The notes under the pieces are model-generated. The model was given only the letters and a program-made list of their open reading frames with translations. It was not told the origin of the DNA and searched no databases. From Paraspadella gotoi (Eukaryota > Animalia > Chaetognatha), in assembly GCA_051294375.1 (NCBI GenBank), contig CM119268.1:13151770-13215769 (forward strand): a DNA stretch of 64,000 bases, read 5' to 3'. Within the stretch, counting starts at the first letter, position 1; each line of letters begins with the position of its first letter. Of the stretch, positions 1 to 56,743 are shown piece after piece. The position numbers were made by a program, and so were the translations under genes.

Positions 1-590
1 TTAATAATCATAATTAATCAGTAATTAATCAATTAGTAAATAAATTAAGTCAATAATTAATTAATTAGTCAATCATCCGTCCACGTCCATCTTACAAAAA
101 GCTCCAATAACTCGTGATTTGGCTGGTTGGATTGGAATTTAATTTTGGTGTGTGGGTGGAAGTGTGATGTGATAAAGCTGCGATATAAAATTGATGGAAT
201 CGTCGTGAGTGGAGAATTTAGTTTAATGGAAAAAACATAATGTCGAATTTACTAAAAGATTTTTTTACTTATTTTAACAATAAATACTCCAATTAACATA
301 ATTGGATGGATAGCCCATTGATGTTGAAATTTTGTGTGTGGTAGAAACGTATGGACGAAGCTTGATATAAAGGTTCAGGTGGAAACGTACCAAGTGGAAA
401 TGAGTTTAAATGAAAAAAAATATGAGTCACATTTACTTGAATCTTTTTATTTATTTTAACCCATGATAGATTTGAGATGAAATTTTGTGAGCCGGTGGGA
501 AAAGTAGTGAGAAGCTAGATATTAAAGTTTTTGACGGATGCATTGAAAAATTATGAATTGAAAAAAATGATGCAAGTTAAAAAAATCTTA
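1..590 (-). mobile_element. Degenerate copy of dispersed DINE-1/HINE-like (Helentron-associated) repeat
   Basis: Reverse complement of the family core (ccatttaaactcatttccactc...cacacacaaaatttcat...caatcacgagt) seen at 36830-37305 and 55540-56658. Confidence 0.6.
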
Positions 591-1153: not shown

Positions 1154-2514
1154 CAGAGAGAAGAAAGAGAATAAATCCAAAATCTCGGCATGAAATATGG
1201 GATTTTGTATTTGAAAATAAAGCGCGAATAAATGGCAATAATAAAAAGTTTTAAAGGGAAAAAATAATCAGAATTTTTCAAAAAACAAACGATACGCAAA
1301 AGATCGGACAGATAGGACAGACACACACATGAGAGACAGAGTAGACAGAGAGGAGAGAGAAAAGAGAGAAGAGAGAGACAGCCGCTGCAGTAGAAAAGAG
1401 AAAGAGCGAATATATAATAATTAAACGAGAGAGAGAGAAGAAGCTCTTAAGTCCCCTTTTACTCGTTAAAAGAAGTCAGCAGGTACTTTATTGGCGCGCA
1501 CGTTTGGTGAGCTATGTCTCTACCCAAAGGACCGGTTCGCGCCTTGTCGCGGGCATCGGTTTTTTACGAATTTAGTTGAACCACATTATATTAAAAATTT
1601 TTTGTGTAAAAAAAGACGAGAGAGAGGAGGAGAGAGACGGGGAGAGAGAAGAAGATCTGGACAGACGCTGCAGAGCCGGAACTCGTTTTTTAGAAGAAGC
1701 GTGACGGAGAAAAAGAGAGAGGAGAGAGAAGCGAACATATTAAATTAAAACGTTTTTTGTTTTGTAAATAAACATAAACAAATACCAATATTGATATGAA
1801 ACATGAGAATTTTAAAGATCTTGATGATTAGAAGCCAATATATTAGGAAAAATTCAACTCCTATGATATACACACTCAGAAGCCATGATTTGCAAAAAAG
1901 CCCGAGACCGAAGCTAAACCCGAAAAAATCTTAGGAACAGGACAGGCATTTGCCCGCACTGGCCCAGATAAGTAGAGGATATGTTGTATTTTTTTTGATA
2001 AATAGCTTAAACAAAAATTTAATAACTGTCTGACTCAATTTAAGGACATCTGAGACTACGTGAATCAAATGTATAAACTATATTAATTAATAATTAACTT
2101 AATTAATTAATTAAGTTATTAATTAAGTTAATTAAGAATCAATTAATTAATTAATTATCGGTAGCAGATCCGACATGGTTTGCTCAAACTTGTTTCTCTT
2201 CGACTTTCCAGTTACGTTGAATCTTCACCAACGAAAGTTCGACGTGGGAAGCGACCACGGTACGACTCACTCCTGGTCGACCCTCACGACGTTCAACGCG
2301 CGTGAGAAAAAAACTATCCCGGCGGTTGTTAGGGGACGTGGAGAAGAAGAGGGCGGGGATAAGGGTTGTTGGAATCGTTGGACTCTGGGAGTCCGTGAAG
2401 AAAGTTTCTGAGTCGAGGCGAGAATTGTTGTAGAGTTGTAGTCTTAAAGGACGAGCCAAAACTGGACAATAAGGTTCCTTAGGGGAAAAGGGTTTTGAGA
2501 TTCTAAAAAAAATG

Positions 2515-17249: not shown

Positions 17250-17840
17250 CATAGCCGCAGTCAATGGGGTGAGTCACAAATTTAAAATGAGGACACGCTC
17301 AAGCAAAAATTTAGACATTTTTAAGTATACTTTCAATGGACAAACAATTTCTTATATGGCTCTATACCCTAGTAATTAATTTTTTAATATTTATTTATAG
17401 ATAGATAAGGCCAAAAATATTTTTAAGAAATTTGAAATTTTAAGACCAGATTCAGACAGCTCATAAAAAGTTGTCTACACAAAGTATAATTCTTTTTTAA
17501 ATATTTTTATGATAAGTAGGTCAAAAATAAAAAAAAAACTATAAAAAATTGTTATCACCATCTTTCGATGATTTTTTATGAAGAAAATGTAAGAATTTTT
17601 TAAAGCTGTAATTATATTTCTTGTTAAACTTTTTATGCTCTATAAGAATCCATTAAAAAAATTTAAGATTTAAAGAAAAAAATGTTTTTCTCTATATAGT
17701 AATATAATAATTTTAATTAGGCGAGTACCCCCAGAAAAAAATATTTTTGACAAAAAATATTTTAATACTATAATCTATGCTCATGATAGATTATTTTAAC
17801 GCTGTATACATTTGCATTTAAATTTCATCGGCTATGGCTA
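17250..17840 (+). mobile_element. AT-rich MITE-like dispersed repeat
   Basis: Similar to the reverse complement of ~36215-36828 (caatggggtgagtca vs tgacccaccccattg) and to 57205-57450. Confidence 0.5.
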
Positions 17841-18285
17841 ACACAGAAAAAAATAGAAGATACTACTTAGAAAATTTTTTATAAGATATGTCCTCCTCTT
17901 CTTCAGAGCCATCGTACGATAAAACTAGTGGCTGCCCTAATACTTGGAAATCGTTATCTTAGAATAAAAAAAATATTTTTATACTATTTTAAAATTTATA
18001 GATAAAAATAATTTTTTAATTTAATTTTTAAAAACTTCTTTTTTCAATATTAAAAAGTATAATAAAAAAAACGACAATTTTGTATTTATAAGGTATCGCT
18101 AAAGCTATTCATAATAAAGCGGAGATTTTCGACGGAATTCAGGAGAGAAACGTATAAAAAACATAACCTATATAAAATCGCCAACGGATAAAAATCATCA
18201 GAAACTTCGAAAGTAACATTGACGTGTTTGTAAAACGAGGAGAAAACAAAAATAAACATTTTTTCCCCGAAAATCAAACGCGACA

Positions 18286-21200
18286 ATGTCGGGGCCATTT
18301 CGTGGCGAAGACGACGATGCCGCCGGCGATCCCCGCGACGCCGTCAAACGAAAAGTGGGCAAGCGGCGCGTGAGTCTCACCCGTTGCAACAACATCGACC
18401 ACGGCGACGAAGACAACGAAGACAAGAGGGCAACGACGCGGCCATCTGAATGGGCCCGGTCGAACAGCCATAATAGAAACGTGAGCTGTGAGGGCTACGA
18501 CGGAGACGACGACGAAAGCGACATCGTTCGTGAGTACAGGGGTTTAGAGATGAAGCGGATTCTTGTTATAGTGACAATTAATTGTTTTATTTCCCTAAAA
18601 AAGGTCGTCCAACGGACAAAGTTGATTACGCGAAGACGCGCATCGAGGAAAGGAGCGACGGAAGCGATCGCGAGAAAGTGGGCGCTGCCAATCAGGTACA
18701 TCCCTCAGCGAATGTAATAATTTTAAATACATACTTAAATAATAAATAGTTTAGAAATACTTTCGGAATAACGCTCTCAAATTTTTGACTTTGGTTGTTT
18801 CTACCTTTCTATTTTTTTAAAAAATTCAGATATGAATACTAATTAAAGTATTTTACTAGAAAAAACTAAAACTAAAAGCATAAAAGTTCCTTTTTAAAAA
18901 ATCTGTAATTAGCATAACTTTTTGCCTTTTCTCCGATTCCGTCAACCGTCATCCCGTCAACCCTCTGCGCTAAAAAGACTTTACCCCCGAGCGGAAATAA
19001 GATCGAATGTCCCCGATTTGAATTTTTCGATGAAGAGGTAAAATTTTTTTTTTTTTTTCTGAAATAAAAAAGACAATTTGACAATTAAGACAATAAGAAG
19101 ATTAAACGATTAAACGATGAGTATTGAGCAAGAAAAAAATGAGGCTACTTTTTTTTAAAATAATTTTTATATTTTGACTTGCAGAATGTGAAACAAATAA
19201 AGGAAAAACACTTATAGATATAGAGAATTAGAGAAAAGCAAAGAAAGAGAGATTGAAAGAAAGACGGAAACAAAAGAGATAAGTTAAGGAAAAAATTATA
19301 ATTTTGATTATTTTTTTATAAATTATAAAAAAGTTTAGACATAAAACTGACCTACTTTCCACTTTTACTGGAGAGATTATTTTCATTTCTCGATCAAAAA
19401 TTCGCGAGAAATTTACAAAAACGTTTTTGGCTGTTCATAATAAAAGTCTCTTTTTAAAGCAGGGAAATTTTTCGAAAAAGAGTAAAATGCAGTTTTCGTG
19501 TAATGTTATATATCAACGTGAGGAGAGACAGATACAATTTTATTTTCTCAGCAACAGAAAGCTCTCCTCGGCAGCCGTCCAGCCTCCGTTCAAAGCCTAA
19601 ACCGGCTCGTGGGATGTGGTCGCATGTTCCGCGACTCGGGCTTTCACAGCCGAGGCGGCTCGACCAAGTCCAACCAATCGCGATGCTCCTACGAGACTCC
19701 GGGTCTGCTCAAGACTCATTCCAACCGAATGACCCGAGAGACGTCGACGGAAGTGGCAGATATCTTCGAGGACACGGGCGAAAGTTCCGAAGAGGAATCC
19801 TTTGACGAGCGAATTCCGGAAACGGCTGAGGATCAGGTGGGTTAATCGATGAATCACTCAATGAATGAATGATTGATTGGCTGAATCTAAGTGAAATGAA
19901 TGAATAAATCTATACGCTATGAATGAAGCACTGAATCAATCAATCAACTCATCAATAAAATATAATCTTTTAGTATAAAAAAAGAAAGAAATATATAAAT
20001 TGATTAATAATTCCAGGTTGACTGTGCCCCCACTTCGGAGATGAGCTTCGGCAACGCCATCGTCCGCGGCTTTGGCGACACCCCCTCCATGTTGGCCATG
20101 AAGTTGTCCGAGGCGCAGGCCAAATCCGGCGAGAACATCTCTCGCTTCCTCAACTTCGTCTTTAAAGAAGAGATCGTCGCTCTGGGAGTTTCTCATCCGC
20201 TGGTGGATCGCGGGTCTTTCTGCTCTCTGCATTGCCTCTGCGTCGAACCTCGGGCCAAGCTTCCCGATTACGAGCAGTTGTTAGTCAACGTGGAGAGCGG
20301 CAACGAGCGAGACGAGGACGGTCCCGTCAAGATGGCGCCCGTCGTCGTCGTCGACCGGGACGTATCGACGCGCCTCTTGCGCTACACCGAGCGGTGGCTG
20401 GAAGAATTGGCCAAAGAGGGCAGAATCTTGGAGCCGGTGAGAGTGGATCTTCTAGACGACGAGAGCGTCTCGCGAGCCCTGTGCCATCTGAAGGCCCTCT
20501 GCCCGTTCGCGCCGATCCCGGCCTCTCTGATTCCTTATTACTCGGGCATGGTCGACGTAGCGAGAATCAACGAACGCCGCTCGAAGCTGGAGGAATTTGA
20601 GAGAGAAAGATATGTGCTCCGGCTGAACCCGGACACCTTCTTCGTGAAACCTGACAAATTGGATCGAATCCTTATGTTGCCGAGAATTTACACGGAGCAG
20701 TACGTGGATGTCGTCGCCGCGTCCTATGCCGTGGACAGGGAGAGAGTTCACGACTGTCTCGATGACGGAATACTTTGCTCAGACGCGCTGGTGCAGCTAA
20801 TGAAGAACGACTTGCAATACGACGACGACGAAGTCAATGAAGACACCTTCAAATGCCTTCTCTCCTACTTCAATGTGGAGGGCTCGATCGTGAGAATCCC
20901 GCCGCCAAAAGTGTTCAAATCTGGTCGTCAGATGAAGCAGTGGTTTTTCAATCCCTTTCAAATGAAGAGTCGTGACGTATCGGTAGTACTTCCCGAAGTA
21001 GAGAAAGACTCTTTGCTTCTCAGCGTGCGAATCAAATTCGTCCGCTCGCAACCGTCCGATTGCTTCCATGTGCTCACGTCCGCGCTTCACGAGTTCTGCA
21101 CTCCCCACACCATCACCGTTAACGGAACAGTCTCGTGGGCCAGGTGCGGAAAAGTCAGAGCCATCATACAAAAATGTTGTCCGTCGTCCGAAATCAAACC

Positions 21201-22737
21201 TTTGATCTACGATAACGACGAAGAAGATCTACACGCCATCTACATTTCCGCTTTCGGTCCGCCGACGAAAGAGCTCGAGGTCTGGACCATGATCTCCGCC
21301 ATCAAAGAGTCCGTCGAGAATCTCCTCAAGCGTTGGGTCGGGCTCGAGCGATCGAGGGATTACGACGTCGAAGTTTCGTGTCCCGAAGTCGTGACGGAAT
21401 CGAAAAACAAGTGGAAGACTCACGGCGCCAACTGGTTCAACGATTGCGCCGATTGCGGACGCGTCGCTGAGATTCCTAAAGTTTTGGCCGCCTACGACGA
21501 AAAGAACCAAGAATACCAGGAACAACAATCGCGAGCGCGAGGTAAGGGCGGCGCTTTTGGGCTTGGAGACGGTAGAAAATGTCCGACCGGCCATGGCTCC
21601 GAATCAGACACGGATTCCGATATGCTGAACACCGGGCGTCGAGAGTCGGGATACTCGACTCTTGAGCGATGCGCATTCCCCCCTTCTCTAGAAGATTCGC
21701 CCGAGGAGAATGTGTCAGATTCTGAGAGAAACAAGAAGACGGTGCCCGACTCTAGAATGGGCATTCAAGAGCTGCAGCTTTGCTTTAAGTACATGTCCAT
21801 GAACAGCATCTGTTGCTTGGGAAGAATGAGTATGAATAAGAATTCGGGTGAGACGGAGCTGAGCCACGTCGGCACCGGCATTCTTGTAGATTACGACGAT
21901 CAAACGGGTGTCGGTCTCGTCCTGACCGCCAACCACGTCGTAGAGGTTCTTTATGAGACCAACAGGACCATCAACGCTTTCCTAAGTTTTGATTATAAGG
22001 ACTCCTCGAGCCGTCCGAGTCATACCGTGGAACACGTGATTTATCAGAACGAAGATCTCGACTACGCCTTCTTAGAAATCCAACGATGCTCCCTCAACTC
22101 GTCCGACGAAGACTTGGAACTGTCTCCGCTCGGTTCCATGATGCCCGATCCGTGCCCTTACAACGACAAATGGGGCAGCTACTGGAAAGAGGAGCATAAA
22201 CTCATTCAGATCGGTCACTCGTGCGGTTCCGCCAACGCGGCGGAAATGTGTCTCACTGAGAACCGATTGTCCTACAAGCTGAGCCGGGCCATTCACTCTC
22301 TGGACCACTTCAACGCTCCCAAGTTTCCCTACTACGAGGAGCTCCAGAAAAAATTGACCCGGAGGGACAAGGAGGAACTTAAAAAAATCGCCTTCACCAA
22401 TCTCTTCAACTTTGGCAATAAAGACTTCGAGGCATATTCCAACTCGGACCGGGATTTCGAGGAGGAGACTGACAATCTCTTGAACCTCATTTGCCAACAT
22501 CGTCATCCTTTTTTCGAGCTGCGGCTTTTGCTACAGTCGGAGCGGTTCCTCCTGACATCAGTAGCCCGATGGGGCGCCTCCGGCTCGCCAATCATCGACG
22601 CCGCGCATCGAGGCGGCGTCGTCGTCGGCATGTTCCTCGGCGGCTTTCCGGATTCGGCGACAAGAGGTAAAGACTTTCTCGTGGAACAGGCGCTCAAATT
22701 GCAGCACGTGTCAAGAAAGCCGGAACGGATCGATTAA
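18286..22737 (+). CDS. Multi-exon ~1,110-aa protein: degenerate Roc/COR-like region plus C-terminal FAM111-like trypsin serine protease
   Basis: In-phase GT-AG exons 18286-18529, 18604-18695 (or 18713), 19552-19836, 20017-22737. Protease motifs GTGILV, LTANHVV (H 21934), DLDYAFL (D 22060), IGH, GASGSPIID (S 22579). COR-like motifs GILCSDALVQLM, PSDCFHVLTSAL, VENLLKRWVGL..VEVSCPE. Confidence 0.8.
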
Positions 22738-23878
22738 ATGTTTACTGTTAATTGTTTTATTGTATACTTACGGAAAAAGAACTATTAAAATTCGTTTTAC
22801 GTAATGATATTAAAGGAATAGCTTAATAGTTTTGACTGCTTGTACTATACTGTTATTGAATATTTCAATTTATGATGGAATAAAAACCACCAACCGTTCA
22901 TCAGCGGCCATTGGTGCCGAAGGCAAGTCATTCGCCTCCCAACCCAAAGGTCCGGGGTTCTTGCCCGGTGGTCGTCTGGCAGTTTAGAGGGACGGGGCGC
23001 TTAACCCGCCTGTAACATGATGTTACAGCCTGATCCGAAGCTCAGGGACTGCTTATATTGAACGGTTCTATCACTTACTCATAACAATAATTACTGTCTC
23101 TTCATTGGTGAGCCCGACTTCCGAACACAACAGCAACAACAACAATTTCAGGCGACATGCCTCAACCTGGCGATGCACTTTCCGCCCACAACACATCAGG
23201 CGACATGCCTCAACTTGGTGATGCACTTTCCACCAACAACAATTCACTGAAGAGACGCAACAGACATCTTCCTACGGGAGGGGGGGATGTATGGTGGAAT
23301 AAAACCCACCAACCGTTCATCAGCGGCCATTGGTGCGCGAGGCAAGTCATTCGCCTCCCAACCCAAAGGTCCGGGGTTCTAGCCCGGTGGTCGTCTGGCA
23401 GTTTAGAGGGACGGGGCGCTTAACCCGCCTGTAACATGGTGTTACAGCCTGATCCGAAGCTCAGGGACTGCTTATATTGAACAGTTCTATCACTAACTCA
23501 TAACAATAATTACTGTCTCTTCAAATTTAAGTTTTCATAAATATATGTCAAGTTTAAATGGGCACAAATTGTATTTTTCAATCACAAAAATTAGGATGCC
23601 GAGTATTGAATTTTAACACTTTTTTTATTGAGATCTACATGAACGGTGTCTAGAACATTTGAATTAAATTTCTGAGAGAAAATAAACTTTTATAGAAACA
23701 GCCTGGGATGGTGCGTTCCCCCTCTAAGCCAATAGGATTGGCGGAACGATGATGGACGTGAGGCCGTGTGAATATTCCGCCACAGTTTGTAATTTTTATT
23801 ACAGCAACGATTTTTTTGTTGGGATAAAAAAAACAACGGACAAAACGCTAATGAAGGCTCGCAAAAAAATCGTTGCTA
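18378..23878 (+). repeat. Left arm of ~5.5-kb inverted duplication
   Basis: Near-identical to the reverse complement of 25303-30778; ends at the N gap. Confidence 0.95.
22869..23523 (+). mobile_element. TRIM (miniature LTR retrotransposon) with tRNA-like LTRs
   Basis: Two ~236-bp direct repeats (22869-23104, 23288-23523; the second is TG...CA). PBS TGGTGAGCCCGAC at 23106-23118, polypurine tract 23276-23287, AATT on both flanks, ~183-bp non-coding interior. Confidence 0.9.
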
Positions 23879-25103: not shown

Positions 25104-25658
25104 GTGCCTATCCTTCTCTTTTTCGCTCTCGCTCTCACTCTTTATCTCTGTCTCTATAAAATATACATGTTTATCTCACTTGCCCCGTCTCTCCTTTTCT
25201 TCCTTTCTTCTTTTGTTTTTCTTCAAGAATTGAATTCATGGTATTTTGCTTTCTTTTCGTTGCTTTTCGATTGAGAGAAAACGAAGTTTGTAATTATTAT
25301 TATAGCAACGATTTTTTTGCGAGCCTTCATTAGCGTTTTGTCCGTTGTTTTTTTTATCCCAACAAAAAATCGTTGCTGTAATAAAAAATTACAAACTGTG
25401 GCGGAATATTCACACGGCCTCACGTCCATCATCGTTCCGCCAATCCTATTGGCTTAGAGGGGGAACGCACCATCCCAGGCTGTTTTCTATAAAAGTTTAT
25501 TTTCTCTCAGAAATTTAATTCAAATGTTCTAGACACCGTTCATGTAGATCTCAATAAAAAAAGTGTTAAAATTCAATACTCGGCATCCTAATTTTTGTGA
25601 TTGAAAAATACAATTTGTGCCCATTTAAACTTGACATATATTTATGAAAACTTAAATT

Positions 25659-26306
25659 TGAAGAGACAGTAATTATTGTTATGAGTTAGTGATAGAACTG
25701 TTCAATATAAGCAGTCCCTGAGCTTCGGATCAGGCTGTAACACCATGTTACAGGCGGGTTAAGCGCCCCGTCCCTCTAAACTGCCAGACGACCACCGGGC
25801 TAGAACCCCGGACCTTTGGGTTGGGAGGCGAATGACTTGCCTCCGGCACCAATGGCGCTGATGAACGGTTGGTGGTTTTATTCCACCATACATCCCCCTC
25901 CCTAGGAAGATGTCTGTTGCGTCTCTTCAGTGAATTGTTGTTGGTGGAAAGTGCATCACCAAGTTGAGGCATGTCGCCTGATGTGTTGTGGGCGGAAAGT
26001 GCATCGCCAGGTTGAGGCATGTCGCCTGAAATTGTTGTTGTTGCTGTTGTGTTCGGAAGTCGGGCTCACCAATGAAGAGACAGTAATTATTGTTATGAGT
26101 AAAGTGATAGAACCGTTCAAATATAAGCAGTCCCTGAGCTTCGGATCAGGCTGTAACATCATGTTACAGGCGGGTTAAGCGCCCCGTCCCTCTAAACTGC
26201 CAGACGACCACCGGGCAAGAACCCGGACCTTTGGTTGGGAGGCGAATGACTTGCCTTCGGCACCAATGGCCGCTGATGAACGGTTGGTGGTTTTTATTCC
26301 ATCATA
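25659..26306 (-). mobile_element. Duplicate TRIM copy in the right arm
   Basis: Reverse complement of 22871-23523. Confidence 0.85.
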
Positions 26307-26439
26307 AATTGAAATATTCAATAACAGTATAGTACAAGCAGTCAAAACTATTAAGCTATTCCTTTAATATCATTACGTAAAACGAATTTTAATAGTTCTT
26401 TTTCCGTAAGTTATCAATAAAACAATTAACAGTAAACAT

Positions 26440-29400
26440 TTAATCGATCCGTTCCGGCTTTCTTGACACGTGCTGCAATTTGAGCGCCTGTTCCACGAGA
26501 AAGTCTTTACCTCTTGTCGCCGAATCCGGAAAGCCGCCGAGGAACATGCCGACGACGACGCCGCCTCGATGCGCGGCGTCGATGATTGGCGAGCCGGAGG
26601 CGCCCCATCGGGCTACTGATGTCAGGAGGAACCGCTCCGACTGTAGCAAAAGCCGCAGCTCGAAAAAAGGATGACGATGTTGGCAAATGAGGTTCAAGAG
26701 ATTGTCAGTCTCCTCCTCGAAATCCCGGTCCGAGTTGGAATATGCCTCGAAGTCTTTATTTGCCAAAGTTGAAGAGATTGGTGAAGGCGATTTTTTTAAG
26801 TTCCTCCTTGTCCTCCGGGTCAATTTTTTCTGGAGCTCCTCGTAGTAGGGAAACTTGGGAGCGTTGAAGTGGTCCAGAGAGTGAATGGCCCGGCTCAGCT
26901 TGTAGGACAATCGGTTCTCAGTGAGACACATTTCCGCCGCGTTGGCGGAACCGCACGAGTGACCGATCTGAATGAGTTTATGCTCCTCTTTCCAGTAGCT
27001 GCCCCATTTGTCGTTGTAAGGGCACGGATCGGGCATCATGGAACCGAGCGGAGACAGTTCCAAGTCTTCGTCGGACGAGTTGAGGGAGCATCGTTGGATT
27101 TCTAAAGAAGGCGTAGTCGAGATCTTCGTTCTGATAAATCACGTGTTCCACGGTATGACTCGGACGGCTCGAGGAGTCCTTATAATCAAAACTTAGGAAA
27201 GCGTTGATGGTCCTGTTGGTCTCATAAAGAACCTCTACGACGTGGTTGGCGGTCAGGACGAGACCGACACCCGTTTGATCGTCGTAATCTACAAGAATGC
27301 CGGTGCCGACGTGGCTCAGCTCCGTCTCACCCGAATTCTTATTCATACTCATTCTTCCCAAGCAACAGATGCTGTTCATGGACATGTACTTAAAGCAAGC
27401 TGCAGCTCTTGAATGCCCATTCTAGAGTCGGCACCGTCTTCTTGTTTCTCTCAGAATCTGACACATTCTCCTCGGGCGAATCTTCTAGAGAAGGGGGAAT
27501 GCGCATCGCTCAAGAGTCGAGTATCCCGACTCTCGACGCCCGGTGTTCAGCATATCGGAATCCGTGTCTGATTCGGAGCCATGGCCGGTCGGACATTTTC
27601 TACGTCTCCAAGCCCAAAAGCGCCGCCCTTACCTCGCGCTCGCGATTGTTGTTCTGGTATTCTTGGTTCTTTTCGTCGTAGGCGGCCAAAACTTTAGGAA
27701 TCTCAGCGACGCGTCCGCAATCGGCGCAATCGTTGAACCAGTTGGCGCCGTGAGTCTTCCACTTGTTTTTCGATTCCGTCACGACTTCGGGACACGAAAC
27801 TTCGACGTCGTAATCCCTCGATCGCTCGAGCCCGACCCAACGCTTGAGGAGATTCTCGACGGACTTTGATGGCGGAGATCATGGTCCAGACCTCGAGCTC
27901 TTTCGTCGGCGGACGAGAAGCGGAAATGTAGATGGCGTGTAGATCTTCTTCGTCGTTATCGTAGATCAAAGGTTTGATTTCGGACGACGGACAACATTTT
28001 TGTATGATGGCTCTGACTTTTCCGCACCTGGCCCACGAGACTGTTCCGTTAACGGTGATGGTGTGGGGAGTGCAGAACTCGTGAAGCGCGGACGTGAGCA
28101 CATGGAAGCAATCGGACGGTTGCGAGCGGACGAATTTGATTCGCACGCTGAGAAGCAAAGAGTCTTTCTCTACTTCGGGAAGTACTACCGATACGTCACG
28201 ACTCTTCATTTGAAAGGGATTGAAAAACCACTGCTTCATCTGACGACCAGATTTGAACACTTTTGGCGGCGGGATTCTCACGATCGAGCCCTCCACATTG
28301 AAGTAGGAGAGAAGGCATTTGAAGGTGTCTTCATTGACTTCGTCGTCGTCGTATTGCAAGTCGTTCTTCATTAGCTGCACCAGCGCGTCTGAGCAAAGTA
28401 TTCCGTCATCGAGACAGTCGTGAACTCTCTCCCTGTCCACGGCATAGGACGCGGCGACGACATCCACGTACTGCTCCGTGTAAATTCTCGGCAACATAAG
28501 GATTCGATCCAATTTGTCAGGTTTCACGAAGAAGGTGTCCGGGTTCAGCCGGAGCACATATCTTTCTCTCTCAAATTCCTCCAGCTTCGAGCGGCGTTCG
28601 TTGATTCTCGCTACGTCGACCATGCCCGAGTAATAAGGAATCAGAGAGGCCGGGATCGGCGCGAACGGGCAGAGGGCCTTCAGATGGCACAGGGCTCGCG
28701 AGACGCTCTCGTCGTCTAGAAGATCCACTCTCACCGCTCCAAGATTCTGCCCTCTTTGGCCAATTCTTCCAGCCACCGCTCGGTGTAGCGCAAGAGGCGC
28801 GTCGATACGTCCCGGTCGACGACGACGACGGGCGCCATCTTGACGGACCGTCCTCGTCTCGCTCGTTGCCGCTCTCCACGTTGACTAACAACTGCTCGTA
28901 ATCGGGAAGCTTGGCCCGAGGTTCGACGCAGAGGCAATGCAGAGAGCAGAAAGACCCGCGATCCACCAGCGGATGAGAAACTCCCAGAGCGACGATCTCT
29001 TCTTTAAAGACGAAGTTGAGGAAGCGAGAGATGTTCTCGCCGGATTTGGCCTGCGCCTCGGACAACTTCATGGCCAACATGGAGGGGGTGTCGCCAAAGC
29101 CGCGGACGATGGCGTTGCCGAAGCTCATCTCCGAAGTGGGGGCACAGTCAACCTGGAATTATTAATCAATTTATATATTTCTTCTTTTTTATACTAAAAG
29201 ATTATATTTTATTGATGAGTTGATTGATTGATTCAGTGCTTCATTCATAGCGTATAGATTTATTCATTCATTTCACTTAGATTCAAGCCAATCAATCATT
29301 CATTCATTGAGTGATTCATCGATTAACCCACCTGATCCTCAGCCGTTTCCGGAATTCGCTCGTCAAAGGATTCCTCTTCGGAACTTTCGCCCGTGTCCTC

Positions 29401-30778
29401 GAAGATATCTGCCACTTCCGTCGACGTCTCTCGGGTCATTCGGTTGGAATGAGTCTTGAGCAGACCCGGAGTCTCGTAGGAGCATCGCGATTGGTTGGAC
29501 TTGGTCGAGCCGCCTCGGCTGTGAAAGCCCGAGTCGCGGAACATGCGACCACATCCCACGAGCCGGTTTAGGCTTGAACGGAGGCTGGACGGCTGCCGAG
29601 GAGAGCTTTCTGTTGCTGAGAAAATAAAATTGTATCTGTCTCTCCTCACGTTGATATATAACATTACACGAAAACTGCATTTTACTCTTTTTCGAAAAAT
29701 TTCCCTGCTTTAAAAAAGAGACTTTTATTATGAACACCAAAAACGTTTTTGTAAATTTCTCGCGAATTTTTGATCGAGAAATGAAAATAATCTCTCCAGT
29801 AAAAGTGGAAAGTAGGTCAGTTTTATGTCTAAACTTTTTTATAATTATAAAAAAATAATCAAAATTATAATTTTTCTCTTAACTTATCTCTTTTGTTTCC
29901 GTCTTTCTTTCAATCTCTCTTCTTTGCTTTTCTCTAATTCTCTATATCTATAAGTGTTTTTCCTTTATTTGTTTCACATTCTGCAAGTCAAAATATAAAA
30001 ATTATTTAAAAAAAAAGTAGCCTCATTTTTTCTTGCTCAATACTCATCGTTTAATCGTTTAATCTTCTTATTGTCTTAATTGTCAAATTGTCTTTTTTAT
30101 TTCAGAAAAAAAAAAAAAAATTTTACCTCTTCATCGAAAAATTCAAATCGGGACATTCGATCTTATTTCCGCTCGGGGTAAAGTCTTTTTAGCGCAGAGG
30201 GTTGACGGGATGACGGTTGACGGAATCGGAGAAAAGGCAAAAAGTTATGCTAATTACAGATTTTTTAAAAAGGAACTTTTATGCTTTTAGTTTTAGTTTT
30301 TTCTAGTAAAATACTTTAATTAGTATTCATATCTGAATTTTTTAAAAAAATAGAAAGGTAGAAACAACAAAGTCAAAAATTTGAGAGCGTTATTCCGAAA
30401 GTATTTCTAAACTATTTATTATTAAGTATGTATTTAAAATTATTACATTCGCTGAGGGATGTACCTGATTGGCAGCGCCCACTTTCTCGCGATCGCTTCC
30501 GTCGCTCCTTTCCTCGATGCGCGTCTTCGCGTAATCAACTTTGTCCGTTGGACGACCTTTTTTAGGGAAATAAAACAATTAATTGTCACTATAACAAGAA
30601 TCCGCTTCATCTCTAAACCCCTGTACTCACGAACGATGTCGCTTTCGTCGTCGTCTCCGTCGTAGCCCTCACAGCTCACGTTTCTATTATGGCTGTTCGA
30701 CCGGGCCCATTCAGATGGCCGCGTCGTTGCCCTCTTGTCTTCGTTGTCTTCGTCGCCGTGGTCATGTTGTGCACGGTG
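26440..30778 (-). pseudogene. Frameshifted, 5'-truncated copy of the COR-like/protease gene (possibly an assembly artefact)
   Basis: The same peptides are split over ORFs 28571-29128, 27703-28776, 26978-27385 and 26440-27063; it lacks the first ~92 nt of exon 1. Confidence 0.7.
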
Positions 30779-30951: not shown

Positions 30952-33900
30952 TCAAAGCCAGGATCGAAGGTAATCGGAAATCTTCGTTCCGACCGGACAA
31001 TCCTGCTTCGTGCAGAGAGAACGAGTACAGTTGCGGCATTGCTTGGAATCCTGATAGCGAAGGCGATGTTTTTGCCCGCAACAATTCGTCTGAAAAAAAA
31101 AACCAAAAAACAAACATGTTTTTAAATTTTGGTGGAAATATAAAACCCTGCGCTGACATTAGAAGAAAAGAACTAAGTCGGAAAACGAAATTAAAAATGA
31201 AAAATTGCAAGCTTACTTGTTTTACTATATTAGACTAAATTGGATTAAATTTAAAAATAAATGTAAAAATTTAATATATTTTACTATATATTAGATTTAA
31301 TTATATTCATTATATTAAGTATATTTTTTATAATGTAATGGGGAGAGGGATGTTAGTGTTGTCTTTTAAAATAGAAGGAGCATCCATACAACACAAGGTT
31401 AAAAGTTACTTTCTGCCCTAGTTTTCTAATAAGATATTAGCCATCATTCTTGTTAAGAAGTCATATATTGAAAATTCAAAATATTTAAAAGTCTGAACAG
31501 GAAAGGAAATTTAAGACTCTCTATCCTGTAAGGCGAAGCGAATCGCATTGCGATGCAATCACATCCCGGGGTGATCTCATCAATGTCAATTATGATTTCA
31601 ATCAATGAAATCAGTTCTTGAAACTTTTTTTTTATATTGATACCAATGCTTATGAAAAAAATGTCAGTTTTACTACTTGAAATAAATTTTGGAATATAGT
31701 CCTGAAAGAGCCCGAAAACCCCATCTCTGCCAAACATAATTATTAAGGCGTAGTGAAAGTTACATACAAAAATTCTAAAAGTCAATTATGAACAACAAAC
31801 CATCAGTGAATATTAATTTGTAAAAAAATTAATTTATGTTTTTTTAATTTTCGCAGCAGGCTATATTTATATATAGTACTATCCTTATAAAATCGAAAAT
31901 TTCAAAATAAGCTTTTCTTAATTTTGATTGCAGATTTGAATTCCTCGTCAAAAGTTGATAAAAGAAAATATAAATCATTTTTAATTTTTTTCATTAAGTG
32001 GGTTAAAAATTAAAAAACTATATTTAATATATAAAAAGTTAATTTTCAGCTTAAAATATAGCTTTTTCTTATTTTTGACCCACTTAATGAAGGAATTTTT
32101 CAAAAAGAGTTATATTTCTTTTTAACAACTTTTTATGAGGAATCCAAATCTGCAAAAAAAATCTTAGAAAAAACTGTTTTGAAATTTTAACATTTTTAGT
32201 ACTTTAGTACCTGTATAAATATGGCCTACTGCGTAAATTGTAAAATTTATTATAAATTTTTTTATTACATAAATGTTCATTAATATAATGTTGTTCGTTC
32301 CTCACTTTTAGAATTTTAATTAAAGTTAAATTTAGAAATTTTACTACGCCTTAATAATTATATAAAACTCAGTTTTACAAGAGGATAAAAGTATAGGATT
32401 AAAGAGGGACCGACTGAGGGACAGAGCGACCGACAAACATCTAATAGACTTGCTTCGCGAATACTCTCCAAACCGCGTAAATAAACCGGTCCCGTCTCGT
32501 TCATCAAGAGAAACAGGGTCCTCGGGGCTGGGCATTGTTCCTCGAACACTTGGCGGGTGACGAAACAAGGGAGTGAGAAATCTTCCCCTTTTCTCTCTAA
32601 TCTCACCTCCTTTTCTCTCTAACCTCACCTCCTTTTCTCTCTAATCTCACCTCATTTTCTCTCTAATCTCACCTCATTTTCTCTCTAATCTCACCTCCTT
32701 TTCTCTCTAATCTCACCTCCTTTTCTCTCTAATCTCACCTCCTTTACTCTCTTATCTCACCTCCTTTACTCTCTTATCTCACCTCCTTTTTCCCGACGCA
32801 TGAGTCGAAACTCTGCTCATAGATTTTGCATTTCTTCTCATCCATGTCCTCTTCCTCTCGGCATCCGCAGACTTCAGTGGTCGTTCTCATGTGGTCGATG
32901 GGAGTCCAATGACCGTCGCGCTCTTTCACGTGGCACGTGGAGAAACAACCGTCGCAACAAAGTCCGCCACCGCTGCAAAGCCTCTCGTTTTAGTTTTGGA
33001 TAACGCTAGATAATATAAGTAAAAAAAAAAAAAATCCTCACTTGCAGCAATCTTCCCCGGTGCAGCACCCATCGCCCCTGCAGCATTTATCGCCAACGAC
33101 GCGAATCCGACCTTCCTTCTCGCAACATGATTTTCCTTCGGGGCAACAGTCTCCGCCGATGCAGCACTTCGATCCCGTGCAGCACTCTCCCATGCCGCCG
33201 CGACTCGGAATTTTGGAAAGAGCGTCGCAAGGCGGTACGGGAGGTGTGACCGGTGTGACTTGAGGTGAGAGAGTCAACATCGAGCAATTATCGACCCTTA
33301 ACGATCCGTCGGTCAGGAGACAGCAACATTCTCCTTTCGGGCAGCACTTTCCTCGTGAGCCGCTCCCGTCCGACGCGCAACACTTGTCACCCATGCAAGT
33401 TCTGTTCTTGTCGCAAGACGGTGCGCAGTCGCCTTGTCGCAACCACATTTTCTCGTTCATGTTGTATACCCAGCAGCAACCCTTCAGGCAGCAACTTTCT
33501 GCCGTTCTGCAGCAACCCTTGGTCTTACAACATCCATTTCCATGGCAACAAAGGGGATTAGGAATTGAGTCGTGGTAAGGCGCCGGGCATTGATCTGTCA
33601 TTGTTCTTTCGCAAGCACCGTGGACCTGAGATCGGAGGAAAATTATATAAAATACCATAAATTAAAAAAAAAAAATTTCTTCCCCTCCCACAGTGATCCA
33701 AATGGACTAAATTTCCGGATAAACCTCTCTTTTTTGGCAAAAATAACCTTTTCTCGTATGCTGATTATCAAAAGAAATTAACCTAACTTAATATTTTTTT
33801 TATATTTATATTATAAGTAATAGGTGTATGTTTGCTAAATATAAAATCTTTAATTTAATCTTTTTAAAAGTGCGCTAAGCAAATTAAAATCGGAAAATCG

Positions 33901-36900
33901 ACCAAAGAAAAGAATCATATGGTAATTTCTGAAGAATATCGAATTCTTTTTTGTTATTTTTTGAATGAAAAGCATTTTTGGATTTCTCAAAAGGGCGGAC
34001 AAATGCGGATGAGATTTAATTAATAACTGATGAGTGATAAGATGTATCATTAGAAACTAAATCTGGTTGATTGAAATTGGCTGAAATTCTATGAGTTTTT
34101 ACTATGTTTTTTATATCATACATAGTGACATATTATGAAAATATTTTTTTTATTTGTTAACAAACTAGACAAAGTGCTGATACCATAACAAAGTCAAATA
34201 ATTTTTCTCTTCCACCCATGTGGGTGAAAAAACCTCCCAAAGACTCACCCGAAATAGAGATTTGCTTATAACTTGAGAAAGAATAATTTTTGGAAACTGT
34301 TATCTTACCTAAGACTTCGTAGCATTCCTATGGAAAGACTGAATAAGTATTTATGCCCGTATGTTCAAGTGGCTTTTATCCGGTTTTATTTTTTTTTTTG
34401 GGATCACTGTGCCTCCCATTGTAATCGAACCGTGTGACGTGTTCCATTCTTGTCGATCCAAACGCAGCTCTCCCCGCAGGATATTTTATCTTTCGGGCAA
34501 CAGCTTTTTTCGTCTTTGCAGCAACCGGGTTCTTCGCAGCATCCAGTCCCACTACAACATAATAATCCCGGGCCGTTGCGGCAGACGCAATCGTCATCTA
34601 ATTCGCAATCGCAAGCATAGTTTCGGACGGATTTCTGAAAAAAATCGATTGATCAATAAAATGAAAAAAAAAAGGAAAAACCATTAAAAATAAAGATGAA
34701 ACTACATCATACTTTTACTATTTTAATATTTATAAATAAAATAATAATTAAATCAGATAATTAAATCAGATAAATAAATCAGATAAATAAATCAGTTAAA
34801 TAAATCAGATAAATAAATCAAATAAATTAATCATATAAATAAAAAAGTAAATAAATAAATAAAAAAGTAAATAAATAAAAAAGTAAATAAATAAATAAAT
34901 AAAAAAGTAAATAAATAAATGAAAAAGTAAATAAATAAATCCATCAATAAATTAAACTACAAAACAATTAAATCTTTACTTACGATGGCCTGCATATGTT
35001 CGGGACAAATGGCGCCTTTCTGGCAGGGGCTGCGATCGGGACCGCATACCACTTTACGGCAACCGCAATTATCAACCGGTTCGTATCTGCAATCAAAAAA
35101 CAAGGGTACGACAAAATTATATTTATCTAGTAAAATTTAAATCACTCACACCTGGTACTCGGTCTTCGCTAAGATCTGCGACTCACCTCAGGATTTTATT
35201 GTAGCAAGCACCCTGGCCAGGCTGTGGACACTCCGTTTTGGGACAGATGTCATCCGGGATTTCGCACGTCACGTTGAGGGCGCAATTCACGCCGTCGATT
35301 TCGTGTACGACCGGACGTTTGCATTCGTCTTTGCATCTTGCGAGTTAAGTGGAGAAATAAGAAGTTAGTGTGGCAGCAAGACTTAAAGCTGCCTCACTGC
35401 TGTCCGTCCTCAGCCTCGTCTCAATGGCTGAGCAGGCTATCCCGGTTCTGGCTTAAATGTGACGGTGCCGGTATAAACATGCCAGTGACAGGAGGCGGTC
35501 ACTGAGGGTCCGCAGCCCCTACGCCAGTTGGTGAGATACCCCGCGCCCCGGGTATCACAGGCTATCCTCCCGTTGCCATATTAGAAATGAAAAATGTAAT
35601 ATGAGAAACGTGAAATCTCACGAGAATCCTTTAAATTTATAATCACAAACCCAAAAAAGAAAAAATATTGATTTTCACTATTGCAGACAAGTTTCGAATA
35701 GATTTGCTATTCATCTTTTCGAAACATGTCTCCAATTAAAAACAAATAATTCGTTGTGAAAATCAATCTTTTCTCTTGTTAAAAAATTAAACCAATGAAA
35801 CGAAAGGAAAATAACAAATCACAAACTTAAATATTTGAATCGCAGGTAACGTGATACAATACAAAACAATAACCAGCAACAACAATCGGCGAATACAAGT
35901 TACATGTTCCAGTGCATATAAGTTGCCAAGAACAGCAAAGTCTGCAACGAAAATCTACATCGACTCGCAATTACTTGATGACGCGATTCTCCTCGATGCA
36001 ATCGTCGCATAGATTCTTCAAAGGCTGGACCGGCATGCAGGATTCGTTGCCGCATTCGTCGCGGGAGACTCGACGGCAGAATTGAGTAGCAACTTCGTCG
36101 ATGCGGTAGTTGTAGCAGTGATCCACTTTCTGGACGGGGGCGAGATAGAAGTGGGGGGTGAGTAGTAGCTCAGAACGGAAATGAAGCAATTTGTTGAATA
36201 AAATAATCAATTAGTGATAGCGGTAGCCGACCAAATTCAAATTTTAATGGGAACAGCATTAAACTAATCCATATTGGTATTAATTATTGTGTTAAAATAT
36301 TTTTTTGCAAAAATGTTCCGAACCATGAGTAATTCGCTAATTAATATTATTATATTGCTATATAATGTCAAAATTTTTTTGTGGATATTTTAAGTTTTTT
36401 TAATTGATTCTGATAGAGCTTAAAAAGTTAAGCAAAAAATATAATTACAACTTTTTAAAATTTTGATGTTTTATTACTAAAAATTAGTAAAAACTGCTAA
36501 AATCATCGGATGATGATGATGATGATGATTTTTTAAGGTTTTTCTCAATTTAAACCCACTTATCATCAAAATATTTAAAAAAGAATTATACTTTGTGTAG
36601 ATAACTTTTTATAAGCTATTTGAATCTGCTTTTAAAAATAAAAAATTCAAAAAAAATTTTTTGACATTTCCTATCTATAAATAAATATTAAAAAATTAAT
36701 TACTAATGCTTCTTGCCATTTTAGAATATTTTGCTCCATTGAAAGTTTTCTCAGAAATGTATGAAGTTTCATTTGGAAAGGTTCCCAAATCAAACTTCTG
36801 ACCCACCCCATTGACGAAGTTTGGCTCTATTAGTGAAACAGGTTTTTTTTTCATTTAAACTCATTTCCACTCAAACGATTCCATCAAAACTTGATTTCCA

Positions 36901-38581
36901 GTTTAATCACACACTTTCATACCCACATACAAAATTTCAGGTCAATCGCCCAATACACTCATAATTGGCGTTCAAATAGTGAAATATATTTTTTTGTTTT
37001 TTCCATTTAAACTCATTTCCACTCGGACAATTCCATCGAAACTTCATATCCAGCTCAATCACACACTTCCCTACGCACACACAAAATTACATTCTAATCC
37101 ATCCATCCAATCACGAGTAATTAGTGTTTTTTGCTAAGGTGGGACAGACGGACAGACAGACGGACATCATTTTTTTGCATAATTCATCGTAATTCAATGT
37201 TCTGACATGATATAAGTGAGTGCCCGACAATATTGAGGGGGCGGACCGACGGACCGACAAAGTGAATTATCGAGTCGGGATCTGCAGATGAGCAGATCCG
37301 ACTAAAAAGAAAAGAAATATACTTTGTAAAACCGAAACACGGCTCGGAAAAAAACTAAAATAGACAAATGAGCAAAGTTTTCGCACTTTTATATCTTTCT
37401 TGACGCAAGACCACACGTCGCACACGCCCCCGCAAGCTTTAACGTCGTCAGGTTGGACGGCGTCTGTTAAGAAAAAAACAAACAAACAAAGGAACAATGA
37501 ACAACATTGAATAATCTTCTTTTCTTTCGGCGACCGTCCAGGCATCGAGCACTCACAGCATTTGGCGTGTCTTTCGGAGCAATCTGCGCCACCCCTGAAC
37601 TTTTCGCACGCTTCCTCGGCGCAGTCTAGGGGCGTCAACTTACTCCAACCGGCTTCTTCGCAATCCCTCGCTCCTTTCGGCTTCTCGCACGTCGTAAGAG
37701 TGCAAGTGTGGCTTCCGTCCACGGCGGTCAGGCTTTTTGACTGTGCGCTGTAGCACCGCTCGTCTCCGAATTCGTCGTAGGATTTGTTCTGAAGAATTGG
37801 TTGTTAATGGATACATTGAATAGGGAATTTGATTGTTAAATGTTTATAAAGCCACGATTCAACATTTCAGAAAAAAATAAAATAAAATAAAGAGTAAGAG
37901 TTTATAAGTTAGAAATAAATCCGTTGTCTTGATAAACAAAAGATATTATTTACCACAACTGCCGTTCACGTCATCGTAGTTTTAAAAAAATGTTTAATCA
38001 ATGAAAATGATCCAAAAGTGGTATATTAGATATAAATGAGACAATCTCTATTAGATTTTTTTTAGACTAAAAAGCAGCCATCACATCATTTTTAATTAAG
38101 TATTAAATCCCCTCATATTATTTACCGCGCATCTTTTCTCGACTTCCTCGATATTCTCGGGAAATGGAACGCATTCTTTTCCGGTGACGAAGCCGCACGA
38201 ATCGTATACCGCAACTACCTTCTCGCAGGGGAGACACTTGCGGCAATTAACGAACCCGTAGACGACCTTGTCGCAGTCAGATTCCATGTCAGGATCTTTA
38301 GGAGGCGCGACTAGGTGAGGCGACAAAGAAAGCTCAAGCGATGTCAATGATTCATTCAAGAGCGATCGTTTTTAAAAACGATACTGGTTACCATTATCGC
38401 TGACAACCGAAAGCGAGTAATCGTTTTTGTAGGCGGGATCGACCGACCAAGATTCGAGCTTATCCACGTCAAAGTAACCGCGAAGCTCTTTCTCGGTCAT
38501 CGCGTTCACCGACGCCGGGTCGAAGACGGACACCGCGCTCGCCAGCGCCAAAAATGTCAGAAGACCGGACCTCCCAGACAT
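30952..38581 (-). CDS. Secreted multi-exon cysteine-rich protein
   Basis: ATG 38581 with signal-like MSGRSGLLTFLALASAVS. Approximate Cys-rich exons 38390-38581, 38124-38312, 37515-37789, 37390-37464, 35975-36137, 35188-35336, 34983-35086, 34410-34634, 33042-33626 (CC pairs), 32782-32982, and 30952-31089 ending DYLRSWL*. Some boundaries are uncertain. Confidence 0.7.
31770..32318. mobile_element. Degenerate palindromic MITE in an intron
   Basis: Mirror motifs aaaattctaaaagt/acttttagaatttt, cgcagcaggctatattt/aaatatggcctactgcg, cattaagtgggt/acccacttaatg. Confidence 0.6.
32579..32790. repeat. 22-bp minisatellite (tctcacctccttttctctctaa), ~9-10 copies
   Basis: Direct tandem units at an exon-intron junction of the Cys-rich gene. 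Confidence 0.9.
34750..34940. repeat. (aaatcagata)n then (taaa)n simple repeats
   Basis: Visible tandem units in an intron. Confidence 0.8.
36830..37305 (+). mobile_element. DINE-1/HINE-like repeat, 3' portion
   Basis: ggacagacggacagacagacggac tract and terminal hairpin gtcgggatctgc-agatga-gcagatccgac; highly similar to 56161-56658. Confidence 0.7.
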
Positions 38582-45600: not shown

Positions 45601-48034
45601 ATTCTTCCCGAAAATTCGGAAGGGAAATTCGATCATGGAAACTAAAAACCTTTATTTGTTTATTCATTATCTCGTCACGACATTCCCTTTCAATTTGTTT
45701 TGAATAAAAAAATAAAAGATAAAAAAAAAATTCCGTTCTTGCTTAATTTGATCGATTTACCCTCTAAAAAACACTTCGCAAAAAATTATATGCCGAACTG
45801 AAAAAGATATTCTTTAAAAGTACAGATCTTAGCTCCAACATCACTCAGATGGAAATCCTTTTAAACGGCGTCACGTCTCGACGCGTGCACGCCAGAAAAT
45901 TTTTTTGCGGCAGGGTCATCTCGTCGCCCGCCGAGTCAAAGTCTCCGGACGCCACCTGCGACCCATCGAGCGGGCGTCAGTGTCCCACCTGCGCCACGGT
46001 CCCGCCCTACCCCGTCGTCTGCCCTCGTAAGCACCTCGTCTTCGAGCTCCGAGACTCTTCGACGTCGGCGACGACGCCGGTTCGAACTTGCGATGGATGC
46101 GGCGACGTGGATCCTCGCTTCGGCTGCGACGCCGACGATTTCCGGTTGTGCGAAAAATGTTTTCATCGTCGGCGCCGGAAAATCTTTCGGCGTCTTAAAA
46201 AGATGGAACGAGAGGCGGAAGAAATTCCGGACAAGGGTGCGAAGGAGAAAGGCGCCGGGAAAAAAGAAGTCGTTGACTCCTTATCCGTCATGAACGAGCC
46301 AGAAAGCGATGATGGGGGACAATGTCTCAACATCCAAAAAAACCAGACGGAAAAAGATAAACAAAGATCTTGTCTAGACGAGATAGTGAACCAATGCTGT
46401 GAAGGACGAAACGAACTGAGATACGACAAATTCGACTACAGTGGGAAAGACGAAGATAATTTTAAAGAAAATTCTTGCCTAGAATCGGCCGAGGATAAAA
46501 AACAATACAAAAGGAATGAGGATTCTTTCAACAAGGACGACGAATATAAAGACGCGCTCGTTAATAACGGACCCGGAGACAATCCCGACTATAACGGTTT
46601 GGACGTTCAGGAGAAAGTGGATCGTTTTGGTACCGAAGAAAATCGCAGCGCGGAAAACGAAAGTAATTGTTCAAAGAATGACTGTTCGCAATTCAACTCT
46701 CATCCGGTTAACTGCCAGAGTGCGGAGGATCATTTGCAATATCACGACGTCAATAGCGATAAAGCTCGTAACTTCGTCAATAGGAGATTCGATCATGACA
46801 GCTCTGACAACCTCGCCGGTCATGGTCAGCAAAAAGAACTTTTTCTCTCGGAAGAAAACTACGATGACGACGAAAACAACGACGACAACTTCGATGACAT
46901 CGAATCGTCAAAGTTTTGTGGCTTATTCAAAGAAAGCGACGCGCCGGACGACGACCAGTTTATGAATTCCAACTTGGAAATCCTCAATCGAAACCAATTT
47001 GATGAGATAAATCAAATGAACGATATCAATCAAATCGAGCGTTGTGATCCTGTAGAGGTATTGAACGATTCCAAAGGACAACACCAAACAGCTGGACAAC
47101 CAAATATTATCTCAAGTGAGATCGAGAACTCTCTAGAAAATCATCGACCCAGAAGCGAAGCGGCTCGTCGACTCGACTCGTTTGATGGAAACGCGCATGC
47201 GCGCGGAAATGGCGAAGAGATAGAGAACGACGACGACGACGACGTGGGCGACGCGTTGGGGGTTATGCAGAAAGCCATTCGTGACTTAACCGACTCGCTG
47301 GAGGTCGTCACGAGGATCGCCGAAACTTCCGGCGGCTTCGGCGAAGACTGCGTCAACAGTCGAAACAACCTCGTCGATGCCTCCGTCTCCACGCGCGACG
47401 ACGACGACGACGAACGACAACGACGCCTTGTTGAGGAAAACCACGAACTCCTCGACCGGATCGACCGACTAGAGATCCTCAAAGACTTTCTCAAGAGGGA
47501 GTCGCGCGCGCGGAAGGAGCGCGTCCAACAGCTCGACGCCGACGCCGCAAATCTCCGCCGCAACAAGGCGTTGCTGGAAGCAGAGTTGGTGGCCGGGAGG
47601 AGGGAGGCCTGGCGCGTGGGGCGAAAGGCCAGGAGAAAAGAGGAAGAAAACGAGTGGCTGCGTGACAAAGAGGCGAGGTTGGTTTCCGGGAGTGCTTTGT
47701 ATGTGTGGATTCATCTGTGAGGCACAAACGAGAGCATAACTGAATTCGAATGATTAGTGAATTGTAAAAGTAAAAAAAAAAATATATATTAAATAAATAG
47801 GCTAAATTTTACTTTCGCCGACCGCGGTTTTGGCGGCTTTTGAAAAACCATTGAAAAATACTTATTTTAAAAAAAAGATTTAAAAAAATATTACCTAATT
47901 ACCCTAACCCTTAATCCTTTTAACCCTAACCCTAATCTACCCCTAAACCACCCTTAACCCTAGCCCTTCCCTTACCCCTCCCTAACCTCGGTCAGCGAAA
48001 GTAAAAGTAACCAAATAAATAAATAAATAAAAAA

Positions 48035-49256: not shown

Positions 49257-49372
49257 CTGTGAATAAAAATTGATTTTTTAAAATTAATTCTGTGAAATTA
49301 AAATAATTAATTCCTGTTGGTGCAATCTGATATTCAAGTATACAAAAATAGTCAATATTTCTCATGCGGTAA

Positions 49373-56658: not shown

Positions 56659-56743
56659 ATCACACGTTGATTATAAAAGAGGGCCCATTTTTTCCAGTCT
56701 TTGGCTATCTTTCATTAGTAAAGTGAAACACAGAAGAAGTCAT

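Follow-up and report, generated by a model that had tools for sequence, protein, structure and literature searches.

What protein is encoded around the open reading frame at positions 20017-22737 of this Paraspadella gotoi DNA, and what kind of module precedes the serine protease at its end, is the question raised by the locus. The window is the whole analysed stretch of 64,000 nucleotides (contig CM119268.1, positions 13,151,770 to 13,215,769, forward strand). A preliminary description, made from the letters alone, had proposed a degenerate Roc-COR-like module fused to a FAM111-like trypsin protease. The protein was found to consist, in order, of a disordered N-terminus, a predicted Roc-COR-like module, a phospho-type linker and a trypsin-like protease.

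Gene structure, protease and relatives

The reading frame at 20017-22737 (+ strand) comprises 906 codons and a stop, lies directly 3' of an AG acceptor and represents exon 5 only. Assembled contigs from one public run (X1, library type unrecorded) skip four introns, all with GT-AG ends. Together with the spliced frame, the contig joints give a gene of five exons and a protein of 1133 residues starting at the ATG at 18286, with an in-frame stop ten codons 5' of it. No differences between the contigs and exons 4 and 5 were observed over 19550-22514. The joints were drawn from separate contigs of this run; the full-length form was put together from them by inference, and there may be a further exon upstream. 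The features of the gene are as follows.

18286-18529, + strand: coding part of exon 1, charged and of low complexity, no Pfam match; GT-AG joint 18529/18604 in the contigs
18604-18695, + strand: exon 2, from contig joints and the spliced frame
18978-19037, + strand: exon 3, from contig joints and the spliced frame
19552-19836, + strand: exon 4, closing the 227-residue N-terminus; its joint with exon 5 lies within one contig, which shows 0 differences
20017-22737, + strand: exon 5, with the Roc-like part, COR, linker and protease; from the reading frame, acceptor and contig joints
20041-20505, + strand: predicted pseudo-Roc of small-GTPase fold, residues ~9-163; from the order of secondary structure in the model, alignments and motif comparison
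20506-20961, + strand: predicted COR-A, residues ~164-315, the least supported part of the model; from Foldseek and an Atlas lead
20977-21423, + strand: predicted COR-B, residues ~321-469; from structure superposition
21379-21456, + strand: C-H-CxxC motif closing COR-B (Cys455, His469, Cys477, Cys480), kept in three of three family proteins (P0001, P0002, P0006)
21637-21660, + strand: linker motif RRESGYST, a basic kinase-type site followed by SGYxS/T resembling beta-TrCP degrons; a lead only, from pattern comparison
21751-22734, + strand: serine protease domain, trypsin-like (clan PA), in which a long insert precedes the Ser motif; from Pfam PF13365, Atlas and motif positions

Exons 1-4 contribute the 227 N-terminal residues, which are charged, of low complexity and predicted to be disordered; a pattern scan found no leucine-rich repeat (LRR) in them, and Pfam gave no match. 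Hydropathy indicated no signal peptide, in agreement with the preliminary description, and no membrane helix (highest 19-residue window 1.39; no more than -0.43 within the first 40 residues), and a secreted protease was rejected for this reason. A transposon or viral origin is unsupported, as the gene has introns and the scan of viral contigs gave no related locus.

When the spliced protein was compared with Pfam, as had been proposed, Trypsin_2 (PF13365) matched above its cut-off (E 1.1e-8 to 1.4e-7; 36.4 bits against 27.6), whereas no Roc or COR was returned. Atlas placed the protease among Trypsin_2 and trypsin-clan clusters at 0.95-0.96. All motifs quoted in the preliminary description were found where it had placed them, including the intact catalytic ones, which occur in the order His640 (LTANH, codon 21934-21936), Asp682 (DLDYA, 22060-22062) and Ser855 (GASGSP, where Ser is the third letter, 22579-22581), in exon 5 numbering.

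When 1.84 billion representatives were scanned with HMMER, residues 1-498 serving as the query, three proteins were returned, P0002-P0004, at 29-33% identity, with clusters of 2, 4 and 1 members. In P0002 and P0006 the linker is followed by the same protease, and both retain His and Asp; the fusion is thus conserved and no quirk of assembly. All four relatives that reach the protease (P0002, P0005, P0006 and P0008) end at the identical residue midway through it, before Ser, and this common stop likely reflects a gene caller entering an intron that the window gene lacks. Identity of P0002 and P0006 to the window protein was 19-22% in Roc, 30-31% in COR and 38-39% in the protease's N-terminal half, while the two are 61-66% identical to each other across the domains (Roc 61%).

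Other searches added little. A word-index homolog search gave none for residues 1-500 and only P0002 for the protease; a search with a four-row alignment gave none, though it missed its own members too and carries little weight. Related loci were absent from the metagenome contigs, bacterial and archaeal genomes, viral contigs and plasmids scanned, and a COR-A profile found nothing on two cyanobacterial plasmids.

The FAM111-like label held in part. FAM111A and FAM111B likewise have an intracellular Trypsin_2 protease, a G-x-S nucleophile motif and a helix ahead of the first barrel. The triad of FAM111A consists of His385, Asp439 and Ser541, with Gly539/Ser541 in the nucleophile motif (PMC10920703; here and below, papers are cited from the parts of their text that were available). 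Its Asp and Ser are 102 residues apart, against 173 in the window protein, which corresponds to an insert of about 70 residues. Unlike FAM111A and FAM111B, the window protein showed no UBL or PIP domain: its folded N-terminal part models as Roc-COR and its first 227 residues are of low complexity. Three sequence searches of the PDB with the protease domain returned neither FAM111A nor any other protease at E<=10, only one unrelated chain, the sensitivity for FAM111A kinship being limited by the insert and the thin alignment. RagC matches to the linker and protease start (E 0.04-0.6) were rejected as chance on low-complexity sequence. The label would therefore describe a type, the intracellular Trypsin_2 protease, and family membership is not supported beyond the Trypsin_2 motifs. 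Kinship may nevertheless exist, since UBLs are likewise missing from FAM111-like proteins of invertebrates (PMC9798293).

The predicted Roc-COR module and its GTP-binding motifs

Residues 1-498 of exon 5 were modelled with AlphaFold2 without templates from a seven-row alignment. The elements of the model follow the order of a small GTPase-like strand-helix part (9-163), a part made of helices and a short sheet, and a sheet with flanking helices. Foldseek gave 25 PDB matches at E<=0.001, and all 24 that were listed are chains of C. tepidum Roco, LRRK1 or LRRK2; the best E value was 2.1e-6, and the first non-Roco protein followed at 4.5e-3. In VIA-align against 48161 chains, Roco chains occupied six of the seven rows above Z 8. 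LRRK2 was colinear with the model from the start of Roc to the end of COR (10..490 to 1333..1865), with Z 10.8 and a root-mean-square deviation (rmsd) of 9.7 A over 228 residues. The monomer model and Foldseek comparison suggested in the preliminary description thus pointed to Roco proteins.

The three parts were also compared separately. Model residues 6-165 align with Rab28 and EF-Tu at Z 6.4-6.8. For COR-A, where the predicted local distance difference test score (pLDDT) is mostly 35-79, the basis consists of Foldseek alignments of 323-344 columns with the isolated COR 3dpt and of Atlas COR-A clusters at 0.81-0.84, the latter a lead only. COR-B superposed on 3dpt_B with Z 9.8 and an rmsd of 2.7 A over 108 residues, and on LRRK2 8txz with Z 10.9 and 2.9 A over 125 residues. 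Atlas features of residues 90-490 fell into COR-A/COR-B clusters at no more than 0.84, again as a lead. The C-H-CxxC motif likely marks a putative zinc site.

In the predicted structure, at an overall pLDDT of 52.6, a Roc part of small-GTPase fold stands directly before COR, and COR divides into a helical N-terminal and a sheet C-terminal subdomain. The call rests on this structure because sequence profiles do not detect COR, and on the model the N-terminal module is very probably homologous to Roc-COR. The earlier proposal of a degenerate Roc-COR was accordingly borne out by Foldseek and VIA-align and not by profiles. Its boundaries shifted: instead of a Roco-like part from ~20330 with a remnant of G4, the model has a Roc fold from ~20041, a whole degenerate G domain about 300 bases upstream. 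WLEEL, which had been taken for a COR motif, forms a helix inside the Roc fold.

As the preliminary description had stated for the P-loop, GxxxxGK[ST] occurs nowhere in the 1133 residues. G1 was intact in 72/72 bacterial Roco proteins (those with at least 430 residues among 120 fetched loci) and in 0/5 family proteins tested, one of which lacks the region. Against the bacterial Roco consensus, the GK[ST] letters of the family are replaced, but the strand leading into the P-loop and the helix following it are kept. In P0001, P0002 and P0006, D and G of the DxxG motif of G3 are replaced as well, so neither G1 nor G3 stands at its expected place; the 18-residue stretch beginning with the G3 strand is unchanged in length and still has the T/S-H/Y close to its end. 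The distance from G1 to G3 is 30-33 residues against 46-61 in bacterial Roco, which indicates a shortened switch I, and G4 is degenerate. The register of G1 and G3 was set by eye and secondary structure. A Roc hidden Markov model (HMM) placed residues 14-40 of P0002 on profile positions 14-40, a result that was not significant (9 of 100 shuffles were as high). Taken together with the model, these replacements lead us to predict a pseudo-GTPase whose GTP-binding motifs are gone.

Proposed control of the protease

The most economical reading, to which slightly less than an even chance is given (about 0.45), is a COR-paired, GTP-independent protease controlled via its disordered parts. It would derive from a Roco GTPase ancestor whose variable C-terminal effector slot took up a protease; for bacteria, at least 24 types of effector, trypsin among them, are described at this position behind COR (PMC8195603). 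COR-B, which mediates dimerisation in C. tepidum Roco (PMC6337361), would pair two chains in the same manner and bring two protease domains together. Their active-site loops might then become ordered as in FAM111A, whose activity needs dimerisation and whose pairing via its own N-terminal helix orders the oxyanion hole (PMC10920703); dimer activation is inferred here by this analogy. GTP control would have given way to post-translational input, most plausibly phosphorylation or cleavage in the linker and N-terminus. Other Roco proteins carry TIR, caspase-like and trypsin effectors in this slot, and only by analogy with them is a role in defence, immunity or programmed death suggested. More tentatively, the proteins may belong to an old animal family of few members. 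Its Roco ancestor would have given up both the LRR sensor and the GTP switch, leaving a pseudo-GTPase scaffold for an intracellular, one-chain, proximity-activated defence or death protease.

When 63 bacterial Roco tails were scanned, 14 TIR, 3 CHAT, 5 EAD, 1 TCAD2 and 0 trypsin domains were found, and a Pfam match was missing in 39/63. Three cyanobacterial Roc-COR proteins (L007, L074 and L075) end in a CHAT (caspase-like) protease domain.

A number of results speak against the COR-paired protease or the Roco origin beneath it. FAM111A pairs by its own N-terminal helix, so COR is perhaps unneeded for pairing; the window protein has no LRR or other sensor domain; the catalytic Ser lies beyond the end of every relative's sequence; and with a single gene copy in the window and no more than three relatives among the 1.84 billion representatives, there is no sign of an immune-type expansion. 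The model itself is of low confidence, with a predicted template-modelling score (pTM) of 0.38 next to its pLDDT and unreliable domain orientations, and over its whole length it reaches an rmsd of about 10 A and template-modelling scores of 0.18-0.29. On COR-B alone, the N-terminal domain of spermine synthase ties with Roco (Z 9.7-10.1). Pfam Roc, COR-A and COR-B gave nothing at E<=10 for seven of seven family members, with controls matching at E<1e-20, and a PDB profile search gave no Roc or COR. Against the 72 bacterial Roco proteins, hhalign returned E 0.37 and a score of 16.6 (reversed control 19.1; 13/20 shuffles higher) and nothing in global mode, and piecewise HMMs built from the same set did not rise above shuffles. 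NCBIfam yielded nothing below E 0.19. A single-sequence AlphaFold model (pLDDT 33.5) had no Foldseek match at E<=0.001, which is not meaningful at such confidence.

These uniformly negative profile tests, the low pLDDT, the spermine synthase tie and, for what it is worth, the single-sequence model (pLDDT 33) would suit a module that is no Roco derivative at all, namely an alpha/beta domain and a ferredoxin-like sheet pulled towards Roc-COR by a weak model, in front of a plain Trypsin_2 protease with accessory domains. That explanation is improbable, given that the three subdomains appeared in Roco order without templates, that Foldseek separated Roco cleanly with an independent language-model lead beside it, and that the best local hhalign alignment, itself insignificant, landed on COR-B at the same place as the structure match. 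The main rival to COR-paired activation accepts the fold and is rather unlikely: the pseudo-Roc-COR would serve as a brake or docking platform, and the protease would pair by its own helix, to be released or destroyed once the linker is phosphorylated or cut. A helix before the first protease strand (583-591, low-confidence model) is conserved in P0002 and P0006, and FAM111A dimerises by a comparable one (PMC10920703). The pattern RR-x-S/T..GY-x-S/T is also common to three of three otherwise divergent linkers and resembles listed beta-TrCP degrons such as those of Bora and FBXO5 (PMC10317156). However, this pattern, met in 54-61 of 200000 shuffles each, was chosen after looking; a pattern-free linker test was not significant (466/5000), and ESG is absent from the degron starts in the available listing of PMC10317156. 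COR-B, the known Roco dimer surface, is moreover as conserved (30-31%) as COR-A.

Two further explanations concern the activity of either end. If the fold is right but the protease weak or dead, the protein would be a non-catalytic scaffold or decoy, a quite improbable case for which an Asp-Ser interval roughly 70 residues longer than in FAM111A, a Ser motif seen in the window protein only and the want of a usable protease model could be cited. All three motifs are intact, though; both relatives whose sequence extends to His and Asp retain them, and no region is better conserved than the protease half (38-39%). Slighter still is the chance that the Roc-like domain binds a nucleotide or ligand non-canonically and controls the protease in the way of an ordinary Roco switch. 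A complete G-domain fold is still predicted, with 61% identity between P0002 and P0006, but Lys and Ser/Thr of G1 and Asp and Gly of G3 are replaced in three of three proteins, and G3 is the most conserved Roco region (PMC6337361).

Surroundings of the gene and comparison with known systems

Beyond an N gap, the window holds a second version of the gene:

25303-30776, - strand: inverted copy of 18381-23878, 99.1% alike, frameshifted and without a start

It differs from the first copy by 44 indel columns, mostly single bases in short runs, and 5 substitutions; its exon-5 coding part has 14 indel columns and 0 substitutions. Indels far outnumbering substitutions are the pattern of unpolished long-read sequence. 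Because of this pattern, and because the contigs agree with the first copy, the inverted copy is likely an assembly artefact, and one gene was counted; a real tandem duplicate or pseudogene was judged unlikely from the indels. Just 3' of the stop lie two 237-base direct repeats (22868-23104 and 23287-23523, 96% alike), also present in the inverted copy. They likely belong to a high-copy short interspersed repeat, since contig depth on them was 12,000-35,000 compared to 48 on the gene.

Elsewhere in the window, exons of a VIT-domain gene were found at 40582-44884 on the + strand (PF08487, E 1.1e-20), which we take to be probably VWA5A-like, and a matrix metalloproteinase exon at 48770-49297 on the - strand (PF00413, E 2.9e-7; best PDB match MMP-16, E 1.5e-6). 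This exon and the introns of the protease gene are in keeping with an animal host. A 650-codon frame at 45768-47717 (+), with no Pfam match at E<=0.01, combines zinc-finger-like motifs rich in Cys and His with an acidic middle part and an end resembling a coiled coil. Two very cysteine-rich frames on the - strand (33041-33661 and 37270-37803), with repeated CC pairs and no Pfam match, are possibly exons of one secreted protein. Dispersed repeats link 17260-17844 with 36214-36815 (75%, inverted) and 36826-37308 with 56158-56659 (90%, direct).

When known systems are considered, the closest layouts are algal and bacterial. The entry IPR009003 is presumably that of trypsin clan PA. Roc-COR followed by a C-terminal peptidase of this entry is described for three brown-algal genes (group 3), all with LRRs, and for some proteins of stramenopiles, alveolates and rhizarians (SAR) (PMC11378527). 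They resemble the window protein in carrying a peptidase domain after Roc-COR in a eukaryote. Their N-terminal LRRs and profile-detected Roc stand against an N-terminus that is disordered, a Roc that Pfam does not see and replaced G1 and G3 in a protein of a likely animal. For one bacterium a fusion of Roc-COR to a trypsin-like protease is on record: of the 17 'trypsin' places in the supplement of PMC8195603, one is a fused row. The bacterial AP-GTPase(Roc)-COR-effector conflict proteins of that paper share the trypsin-like protease in the slot after COR. They differ in their canonical G1 (72/72), in the rarity of trypsin tails (0/63) and in having no detectable sequence similarity to the window protein.

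LRRK1, LRRK2 and C. tepidum Roco have Roc, COR-A and COR-B in the order predicted here, and MFHAS1 and DAPK1 are Roco relatives by family. Identity of the window protein to these is 9-14%; it lacks their LRRs, kinase, WD40, death domain and GTP-binding motifs and has a protease as its output. In the literature searched, mostly outside subscription journals, no described animal Roc-COR with a serine protease, COR with FAM111, diatom Roco with trypsin, or Roco pseudo-GTPase was found. The available parts of two Roco reviews (PMC4104024, PMC6337361) and of PMC3341825 do not contain the word protease, and COR and Roco together with a trypsin-like peptidase came up only in conflict-system papers such as PMC7159879. 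The claim that no characterised animal protein has this architecture thus stood as far as that literature goes, the layout itself being on record for a bacterium (PMC8195603) and for brown algae and SAR (PMC11378527). As a layout class it is known from bacteria and algae; the LRR-less, GTPase-dead, profile-invisible version, conserved in a likely animal lineage, appears to be new.

For LRRK2, debate continues on how Roc-COR links nucleotide state and dimerisation to an output enzyme (PMC6337361). With a conserved natural version that has no GTP motifs and a protease as its read-out, what COR does as a scaffold could be told apart from what Roc does as a switch. Proteins of Roco descent can escape Pfam entirely, and profile-based surveys of Roco architectures would then undercount. 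The protein would also count as a candidate intracellular protease effector in the immunity or cell death of invertebrates. If a proximity-activated pseudo-Roco family is indeed present, it would parallel the bacterial Roc-COR-effector systems and offer a natural test of Roc-COR without nucleotide.

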